Source of the DNA: a virus
Taxonomy: Duplodnaviria; Caudoviricetes
Reading direction: 5' to 3' (one strand)
DNA: 64,000 nucleotides
Virus record (IMG/VR): IMGVR_UViG_3300005326_000040
Coordinates: 32,001-96,000 of that record
Positions 28,031-42,961 of this stretch are shown here, piece by piece. A program made the position numbers and the translations under genes. The stretch's first letter is position 1. Each line of letters starts with the position of its first letter. Below the pieces are notes generated by a model. The model was not told where the DNA came from. It did not search any database and worked only from the letters and a program-made list of their open reading frames with translations.

Positions 28031-28146
28031 GTTTTCCTTCAAACTATTCGGTACAAACATATATCAAAGTATTATCAGCCTAACAAGTCTTTTGCTGGCT
28101 GAAATGCTATTGTGAAAATTATAAGTAAGAACTGGCCGGAAATTGG

Positions 28147-39919: not shown

Positions 39920-39980
39920 CGCCGATGTTTGCCCCTTTCTCAGCCTTCGGCTGGGGGAGGGGCGTTCTTTCGGCGGTTAA
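39920..39980 (+). repeat. Intergenic hairpin repeat H1
   Basis: CGCCGA-TGTTT-GCCCC-stem/loop-GGGGC-GTTCT-TTCGGCG-GTTAA, with G.U pairs in the upper stem. Confidence 0.92.
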
Positions 39981-40097: not shown

Positions 40098-40173
40098 GCG
40101 GATATGTAGCACAATGTGGAACCTAATGAGTTATTGGCATTAGGGATGGGTTCGATTCCCATATGTGCTGCCG
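40098..40173 (+). ncRNA. Degenerate tRNA-like element
   Basis: T arm ATGGG-TTCGATT-CCCAT, 7-bp stem CCTAATG/CATTAGG with a 9-nt loop, imperfect acceptor stem and D arm. Confidence 0.55.
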
Positions 40174-40257
40174 AGTGAAGATAATTCTTTCATTCGATTG
40201 TGGAGCATTCACAAGTAACAGGGTGTGAGTGGATTGAATCTCCAATCCAACTCTAAC

Positions 40258-40363
40258 TGGGTTTAGCTCAAGGGTAGAGCAACTTATGTTTCAAGGTCCT
40301 TCCTAACCAGCGGGACACCGAAACATAGGGATATATCGAGTTCAAGTCTCGATAGCCCAGCCA
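40258..40363 (+). ncRNA. tRNA-like RNA with greatly extended anticodon arm
   Basis: D arm GCTC-AAGGGTA-GAGC, 10-bp stem CTTATGTTTC/GAAACATAGG enclosing a GTCC/GGAC hairpin, T arm ATCGAG-TTCAAGT-CTCGAT, 3' AGCCCA-G-CCA. Confidence 0.75.
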
Positions 40364-40479
40364 AGTTAGTTGTCCTTTTCCTCTTCGGGGGATTAGCCCA
40401 TAGGGACGTGGGCACACCAGCCGTTATGTGGACGGTTGGAATGATTGTTGGGGTAATCCCCGTTGAAGGAGAATGAATC

Positions 40480-40755
40480 ATGGCACGTCGTAATGCTGCT
40501 CGTCGGGCTCGCAATTCAAAGAGGTCTGCCCTCGTGACTGCCGCTATTCAGATGGCTTGCAATGCGGGCTCCGGGCTTCAACTCTTCGTCGGAGCCTCCG
40601 TCGAGGAGTGTGAGCATGATTACGCGAAGAGCCTCGGTGCGGAAGCTGCAAGGCTCCGCTCGGGGCTCTTGGGATACGGGCTCAATATGGCGGCATTCCG
40701 CCATGAACCGCCCGTCGTTCAAGACTACGTGAGGAACTACATCCTCCTCGCATAG
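40480..40755 (+). CDS. Hypothetical protein
   Basis: 91 aa, AAGGAG RBS, stop directly before H2. Confidence 0.75.
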   Translation: MARRNAARRARNSKRSALVTAAIQMACNAGSGLQLFVGASVEECEHDYAKSLGAEAARLRSGLLGYGLNMAAFRHEPPVVQDYVRNYILLA

Positions 40756-40760
40756 TTTTG

Positions 40761-40823
40761 CCGCCGACGTTTGCCCCTGTATCGGCCTTCGGGCCGGTAT
40801 GGGGGCGTTCTTTCGGCGGTTAA
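40761..40823 (+). repeat. Intergenic hairpin repeat H2
   Basis: Consensus arms with a cUUCGg tetraloop. Confidence 0.92.
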
Positions 40824-41095: not shown

Positions 41096-41158
41096 CCGCC
41101 GATGTTTGCCCCTGCTTTGGCCTTCGGGCCATTGTGGGGGCGTTCTTTCGGCGGTTAA
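41096..41158 (+). repeat. Intergenic hairpin repeat H3
   Basis: Consensus arms, UUCG loop, abuts the AGGAGG RBS. Confidence 0.92.
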
Positions 41159-41461: not shown

Positions 41462-41524
41462 CCGCCGATGTTCGCCCCTTTCTCAGCCATTCTGGCTGGG
41501 GGAGGGGCCTTCTATCGGCGGTTA
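41462..41524 (+). repeat. Intergenic hairpin repeat H4
   Basis: Consensus arms. Upper stem nearly identical to H1. Confidence 0.92.
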
Positions 41525-41528
41525 AGAA

Positions 41529-41666
41529 TGCCAGATATCGTCCCCACTTCCTTTTCCCGCAAGGATTAGGGGGTCAAGTTGAAGAAGGACAAACCGGGAT
41601 GAACAATCCTGGAGGGACGGAGAGCTTTCGAGTTCTCAGGTGGTTCAATTCCATCATCTGGCACCA
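41529..41666 (+). ncRNA. Expanded tRNA-like RNA (138 nt)
   Basis: Acceptor GCCAGAT/ATCTGGC-A-CCA, T arm GGTGG-TTCAATT-CCATC, variable-arm hairpin GAGAGCT-TTCG-AGTTCTC, GTCCC/GGGAC long-range stem. Confidence 0.75.
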
Positions 41667-42896: not shown

Positions 42897-42961
42897 CCGC
42901 CGATTGTTTGCCCCTGCTTTCGCCTTTCGAGGCGATTGAGGGGCATTCTTTCGGCGGTTAA
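42897..42961 (+). repeat. Intergenic hairpin repeat H6
   Basis: Consensus arms, UUCG loop. Confidence 0.92.

Follow-up and report, generated by a model that had tools for sequence, protein, structure and literature searches.

Giant phages carry many tRNA-shaped genes that are missed by standard tools and that are unable to decode, and one such locus raises the question of what an RNA of this shape is for when its anticodon cannot be reached. The stretch of DNA analysed here (the window, 64,000 nucleotides) corresponds to bases 32001-96000 in the IMG/VR record of an uncultured phage, which has 338,055 bp and a completeness of about 97%. At positions 40258-40363 it holds a clean case of such a gene, i.e., a complete tRNA body with a precise insert of 30 nt that hides the anticodon. 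If the RNA is a mimic or a cutting signal, it would be further evidence that phages reuse the tRNA shape for transcript organisation or for host tRNA-binding factors, while an RNA that is spliced would be the first example from the bacterial world of protein-dependent tRNA splicing. For both ideas the locus provides a short and well-defined substrate in a phage with RNA ligases, a CCA-adding enzyme, and a Ro60-like protein.

A preliminary description based on the letters of the sequence had reported a normal D arm and T loop, a 6-bp acceptor stem and a 6-bp T stem that together retain a stack of 12 bp, an encoded CCA, and an anticodon arm in which a 10-bp stem is followed by a second GTCC/GGAC stem with a large loop. 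All of these elements are present in the sequence and in the predicted fold (Table 1). The cloverleaf has a minimum free energy (MFE) of -37.4 kcal/mol (z -4.04, with 1 of 200 shuffles equally good), and the anticodon arm in isolation reaches -17.3 kcal/mol (z -4.39, with none of 200 shuffles equally good). The opposite strand folds more weakly (z -2.73) and is without the tRNA signature nucleotides.

As in an elongator tRNA, there is a four-arm cloverleaf with U8, A14, G18G19, U54-U55-C56, and A58, joined by a variable loop of 5 nt. The core, however, departs from the elongator standard of a 7-bp acceptor stem, a 5-bp T stem, and a single nucleotide 26. The acceptor stem could be extended by an optional seventh pair of C40257 with G40360, and the 6+6 stack has an alternative drawing, used by ARAGORN, as a 7-bp acceptor stem with a U.U mismatch and a T stem of 5 bp. 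Between D stem and anticodon stem lie two unpaired A (40281-40282) rather than the usual one nucleotide, a detail absent from the preliminary description. The 19 ordinary tRNAs of this phage, most of which lie in four clusters, show standard geometry at the points where the candidate departs from it.

The most conspicuous departure concerns the anticodon arm. Its 10-bp helix is formed by CUUAUGUUUC (40283-40292) with GAAACAUAGG (40320-40329) and is topped by a symmetric 3x3 internal loop, AAG/ACC, and an inner hairpin (40296-40316) with a GUCC(U)/(G)GGAC stem of 4-5 bp and a loop of 11-13 nt. The anticodon-like UUC (40290-40292) is buried within the helix, and U33, U34-U35-C36, and the adjoining bases all lie inside its continuous 10 bp, so that bases 32-36 are paired and the 7-nt loop with a free anticodon is absent. 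As made, the RNA cannot read codons, because the insert pairs with bases 32-36 and locks the anticodon in a helix. The earlier suspicion that this doubled anticodon arm would be unfit for decoding unless spliced or trimmed is thus borne out by the fold.

Table 1. Features of the tRNA-shaped RNA gene, its surroundings, and related genes of the phage (window positions unless marked as genome positions).
Feature	Position	Strand	Description
tRNA-shaped RNA gene, whole	40258..40363	+	106 nt, terminates in encoded GCCA (sequence and fold)
Acceptor stem, 5' strand UGGGUU	40258..40263	+	pairs with AGCCCA 40354-40359; 6 bp, one G-U
U8 and A9	40264-40265	+	precede D arm
D arm GCUC-AAGGGUA-GAGC	40266..40280	+	carries A14, G18G19
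Extended anticodon arm	40283..40329	+	47 nt; 10-bp helix, internal loop, inner hairpin
Insert relative to canonical tRNA-Glu(UUC)	40294..40323	+	30 nt, after position 37/38
T arm AUCGAG/CUCGAU	40335..40353	+	6 bp, loop UUCAAGU; U54 U55 C56 A58 present
Acceptor 3' strand AGCCCA, discriminator G 40360, encoded CCA 40361-40363	40354..40363	+	
D-armless tRNA-shaped element	40106..40172	+	86 nt upstream of candidate; Rfam tRNA 15.7 bits, E 8.7 (weak)
Third tRNA-shaped RNA, unannotated	41530..41666	+	137 nt; found by acceptor and T-arm scan
Conserved intergenic hairpin of ~57 nt, five copies	39920-39976, 40763-40819, 41098-41154, 41462-41521, 42901-42957	+	each directly after a small ORF
Sealed-anticodon tRNA look-alikes	window 50026, 55933, 56388; genome 99075, 110581, 112577		5-8-bp anticodon stems, 3-5-nt loops
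Two PF09414 ligases and PolyA_pol/CCA-adding-type nucleotidyltransferase	genome 198623-199408 (L132:1390-2175), 151250-152302 (L133:1021-2073), 296282-296665 (L197)		
TROVE/Ro60-like protein	genome 248248-249858 (L195:2248-3858)	+	536 aa; Pfam 42.6 bits

The behaviour of tRNA-finding tools indicates where this arm comes from. Default ARAGORN makes no call on the intact gene, and the Rfam tRNA model RF00005 matches it neither at the gathering score (29 bits) nor at E values up to 10. In its relaxed mode with introns allowed, ARAGORN reports a tRNA-Glu(UUC) with a 30-nt intron at position 37/38, a call that is weak by itself because this mode produces ca. 1.4 false intron calls per shuffled 64-kb window. 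The insert can be placed in two ways that differ by one base, with removal of 40294-40323 leaving the loop GUUUCAC and removal of 40295-40324 leaving GUUUCAA (junction sequence ...CUUAUGUUUCA(A/C)AUAGGGAUAU...). With either block of 30 nt taken out, the anticodon loop returns to its canonical 7 nt, U33, UUC, and A37 included, and ARAGORN at its default setting recognises a tRNA-Glu(ttc) of 76 nt; on 1.92 Mb of shuffled sequence this setting made 0 calls. Since the insert-free form passes default ARAGORN while the shuffles yield nothing, we conclude that the gene derives from a tRNA-Glu gene and that its extra material is a discrete block behind A37. With its final 5 nt the insert is exactly complementary to bases 32-36, which for a random insert is expected by chance in ca. 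1 of 1000 cases, and a search of the phage genome for paralogues of the insert found none. Two other classes of RNA were considered and rejected. A group I intron would require a ribozyme core of ca. 200 nt or more compared to the 30 nt of the insert, and no Rfam intron family matched; an ARAGORN search for tmRNA across the whole genome found none, and the RNA is only 106 nt long with a full D arm.

An insert that seals the anticodon could simply mean that the gene is dead, i.e., a tRNA-Glu gene that lost its function through a template-switch mutation or the insertion of a small palindrome and now awaits deletion. Such a history would be compatible with an RNA that cannot decode as transcribed, with its several departures from standard tRNA geometry, with its location in a 576-nt non-coding block next to another defective-looking tRNA shape, and with the fact that no homologue shows conservation. 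However, all five helices are intact with G-U pairs at most, the core nucleotides and the CCA end have all been kept, the inner hairpin folds as well, and a chance insertion would rarely match bases 32-36 so exactly; moreover, phage genomes rarely retain junk. Because every stem is intact, the tRNA core nucleotides are present, and the fold statistics are strong, decay is unlikely, and we consider the dead gene an improbable explanation of this locus.

A different possibility is a working, interrupted tRNA-Glu(UUC) from which phage or host proteins excise a 30-nt intron, with the exons perhaps being joined by an Rnl2-family ligase. In this case the gene would provide the only tRNA-Glu of the phage, given that ARAGORN found no other among its tRNA genes across the whole genome; GAA is the most used codon of this virus (50.1 per 1000), and the genome encodes two PF09414 (Rnl2-family) RNA ligases, one of them with an N-terminal PHA02142 OB-fold domain. 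The insert resembles the protein-spliced introns of archaea and eukaryotes in its position at 37/38, from which its removal restores the 7-nt loop, in its size of 30 nt, and in its pairing with the anticodon, and the clean default ARAGORN call on the insert-free form fits an intron equally. Unlike in these introns, no bulge-helix-bulge can be drawn and there is no bulged 3' splice site: the 3' strand GAAAC-AUAGG forms a continuous helix with the symmetric AAG/ACC loop as its sole interruption, and the 3' cut that would restore a 7-nt loop would fall inside this helix. A second insert-bearing tRNA candidate, Asn(GUU), lies within a tRNA cluster of the same genome and lends some weight to the idea of excision. 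However, its insert emerges at the top of the helix, and cutting at the equivalent place here would leave a sealed 10-bp stem and no anticodon loop.

The machinery and the tRNA body speak against excision as well. Neither a PF01974 splicing endonuclease, for which the search controls gave signal, nor RtcB nor GluRS was found in the phage genome. In JGI metagenome contigs, a pattern accepting the spliced or the unspliced form had no match, hence no rejoined form appeared there. In addition, the acceptor/T geometry is odd, position 26 has an extra base, G32 is unusual, and the D arm is without U11-A24 and U13-G22, two identity features of E. coli tRNA-Glu. The gene also lies among clearly non-decoding tRNA shapes, and, to our knowledge, protein-dependent tRNA splicing has never been demonstrated in bacteria or bacterial viruses. 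We therefore regard the interrupted but functional tRNA-Glu as doubtful. Its most specific version, a true tRNA intron of a bacterial virus in which a nuclease would cut both strands of the helix and an Rnl2-family ligase would reseal the loop, with the anticodon perhaps hidden from host anticodon nucleases until maturation, appears unlikely to us.

A precedent for an intron of this kind is the set of "enigmatic" tRNA introns of Lak megaphages, which recur identically across genomes and whose excision points are fixed by intron-less alleles (Devoto et al. 2019, PMC6784885). Like these, the gene studied here is a tRNA gene of a giant phage that bacterial-mode finders miss and that has a short insert in the anticodon loop, too small for self-splicing (PMC6784885). 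Unlike in the Lak phages, there is only one gene, no allele or relative has been found, the insert is helical with the anticodon, and the tRNA core is non-standard.

The surroundings of the gene may point to another use of the tRNA shape. The RNA sits in the 576-nt gap between two small ORFs on the + strand, within an array of small ORFs on this strand and outside all four tRNA clusters. Two reverse-strand ORFs overlap the non-coding block, for which no Pfam families were found and of which only the one at 40284-40514 overlaps the RNA itself. Immediately upstream of the RNA we saw no convincing sigma-70 promoter, as would fit a gene that is co-transcribed with its neighbours and then cut out. 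The small ORFs of the array are separated by a conserved hairpin of the form CCGCCGA-UGUUU-GCCCC...GCC-UUCG-GGC...GGGGC-GUUCUU-UCGGCGG, then UUAA, in which an internal loop separates the outer stem CCGCCGA/UCGGCGG from a G+C-rich inner stem and whose core motif would be expected 0 times by chance. These repeats have the look of intergenic terminators or of processing sites of the RNase III type, and in shape they resemble the RNase III processing sites between the early genes of phage T7.

Two further odd tRNA shapes are found within 1.4 kb of the candidate. In the smaller one, upstream, an acceptor stem is combined with a hairpin of 7 bp that has a loop of 9 nt and with the T arm AUGGG-UUCGAUU-CCCAU, and the end reads GCCG rather than CCA (fold z -2.66, with none of 200 shuffles equally good). 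The larger one combines a 7-bp acceptor stem GCCAGAU/AUCUGGC, A73, an encoded CCA, and a T arm with a three-hairpin domain that replaces the D and anticodon arms and with a 7-bp UUCG hairpin at the position of the variable arm. It folds strongly (MFE -57.2 kcal/mol, z -3.99), is missed by ARAGORN, and has no significant match in Rfam. Beyond these two, the phage encodes look-alikes with sealed anticodons that share with the candidate the genome, mostly the same gene array, full tRNA bodies, and non-decoding arms, with loops that often read NUUC. The difference is that their loops have shrunk, whereas the loop of the candidate has gained 30 nt, the excision of which could in principle restore it.

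Taken together, we tentatively favour the reading that 40258-40363 is an intact gene whose product, a non-decoding RNA of tRNA shape, goes back to tRNA-Glu(UUC) and is cut from a multi-gene transcript by tRNA-processing enzymes. As part of this scenario, the RNA would be co-transcribed with its neighbours in a same-strand multi-gene RNA. The 12-bp acceptor/T stack, the D/T elbow, the discriminator, and the encoded CCA would then direct host RNase P to cut at 40257/40258, and trimming from the 3' side would stop at the CCA. Cutting would release a stable RNA of 106 nt and separate the flanking messages. With no free anticodon the product would not read codons, and a GluRS that requires the anticodon should not charge it; once released, the RNA may also serve to mimic a tRNA or to present its long arm to a protein.

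We prefer this non-decoding tRNA-shaped RNA because the anticodon is sealed and no bulge marks the would-be 3' splice site, because the 97%-complete genome has no splicing endonuclease or RtcB, and because the core geometry is off the elongator standard, unlike that of the ordinary tRNAs of the phage. The other non-decoding tRNA shapes in the same genome, the location in an array of ORFs separated by hairpins and outside the tRNA clusters, and a CCA-adding-type enzyme of the phage that would be available for processing favour it further. Against it we count the exact restoration of the loop, the lack of another tRNA-Glu, the top rank of the GAA codon, and the two Rnl2-family ligases. The first of these does not separate the readings, since the loop would return upon removal of whatever had been inserted into a tRNA-Glu gene. 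It also counts against this reading that a pure processing signal needs neither a full D arm nor a 47-nt anticodon arm and that no homologue was found to support selection on the arm.

The length of this arm allows for yet another use, in which the tRNA body serves as a scaffold for an active long arm, for instance a mimic of a host CRISPR repeat or a ligand of the Ro60-like protein. The arm has the length and the termini of a CRISPR repeat: a 37-nt stretch, GUUUCA...GGGAC-ACCGAAAC, with 8 nt 3' of the hairpin, is reminiscent of a repeat with its 8-nt handle. However, the GUUUC/GAAAC termini are already accounted for by the pairing with the tRNA-Glu loop, and a pattern of this repeat with 19 fixed bases found 31 sites among 185,579 species genomes, all of them single-copy and none in a CRISPR array. 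The phage does encode a TROVE/Ro60-like protein, and bacterial Y RNAs join a long helix with a tRNA-like module (PMC4201824). Genes of YrlA-type Y RNAs are found no more than 4 kb from rsr, and the motif GNCGAAN0-1G is present in them (Chen et al. 2014, PMC4201824). The candidate is like YrlA in combining a tRNA-like module with a long helix in a genome with a Ro60 orthologue (PMC4201824), but in YrlA it is the long helix that is made by the RNA ends, with a closed acceptor stem, and this topology is reversed in the candidate RNA. We rejected its assignment as a YrlA-type Y RNA because of this reversal, the missing motif, and a distance of 177 kb from the TROVE gene; a search with the Y RNA families of Rfam gave no match to the RNA either. 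As a whole, a scaffold for an active arm seems highly improbable to us.

A possible Y RNA locus, and a better Y RNA candidate than the RNA at 40258-40363, lies ca. 190 nt upstream of the Ro60-like gene itself. There, a promoter-like TTGACA-N17-TATATA is found together with the T-arm-like GUGGUUCGAAUCCAC (L195:2045-2059), which is flanked by two similar units of ca. 80 nt. An Rfam search of this upstream region had no match, and its MFE folds are weak and unconvincing. The Ro60-like gene, the two ligases, and the CCA-adding-type enzyme together probably form an RNA repair or quality-control kit.

Relatives of the RNA were sought in several ways. We scanned IMG/VR with patterns of the anticodon arm, of the T arm plus acceptor stem, of the D arm and the T loop separated by a long gap, and with designs of a tRNA-Glu with insert, and these scans returned nothing but chance matches or unrelated long tRNA-like genes. 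Use of the repeated intergenic hairpin as a tag for related phages gave 13 matches, all unrelated, and BLAST against 50,697 cultured-phage records produced nothing useful. Protein-based searches for the locus revealed no relative, and the neighbouring 215-aa protein matched only itself among 5.8 billion proteins. A class-level pattern had 57 matches in metagenomes, most of which ARAGORN reads as tRNA-Lys or tRNA(UUA) genes with introns. We rejected these as relatives: the few that we inspected look archaeal-type with ordinary bulge-helix-bulge introns, and the archaeal-type tRNA-Lys genes have the expected bulges, unlike the candidate RNA. The phage is present in samples SRR5248219, JGI 3300030493, and JGI 3300029959. 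Four further contigs of it, which stem from three other samples, match the 576-nt block without a single difference and thus offer no variation for a covariation analysis. Among the unrelated sequences, contig IMGVR_UViG_3300012208_000007 has a tRNA-like gene of ca. 100 nt (L121:3762-3871, + strand) with a long AU-rich variable arm and an anticodon loop CCCUAAA that includes a possible CUA amber-reading anticodon without U33.

Placed among known systems, the RNA at 40258-40363 joins the tRNA look-alikes and the insert-bearing tRNA genes of phages as a singleton whose function we infer. Comparable phage-encoded stable RNAs are species 1 and 2 of phage T4, also called RNA C and RNA D. In the fold of RNA C, an acceptor-like stem and a true T arm are joined by a long extra arm, and both RNAs mature together with tRNAs. 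Unlike the candidate, they lie inside a tRNA operon and are without a normal D arm, and we saw no sequence similarity; the candidate, in turn, has kept a complete cloverleaf and an anticodon-like triplet. Outside of phages, plant mitochondrial t-elements and mascRNA use the tRNA shape solely for the recruitment of RNase P and of enzymes for 3' processing, while engineered tRNA scaffolds stabilise a passenger hairpin placed in the anticodon arm. None of these three comes from a phage, and the processing of the candidate RNA is a prediction.

Across the phage genome, the sequences that follow the discriminator are of two kinds, either an encoded CCA (often CCAA) or a recurring CUA-R-G (ACTAGG, TCTAAG, GCTAGG). 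Both kinds are common to ordinary tRNAs and to the sealed-anticodon look-alikes, which suggests a common processing signal. Outside of the window, the genome also carries a canonical-looking tRNA with the anticodon UUA (28046-28121, + strand) that would read UAA, and despite this tRNA, TAA is the commonest stop codon, ending 160 of 339 long ORFs compared to 90 for TGA and 89 for TAG.
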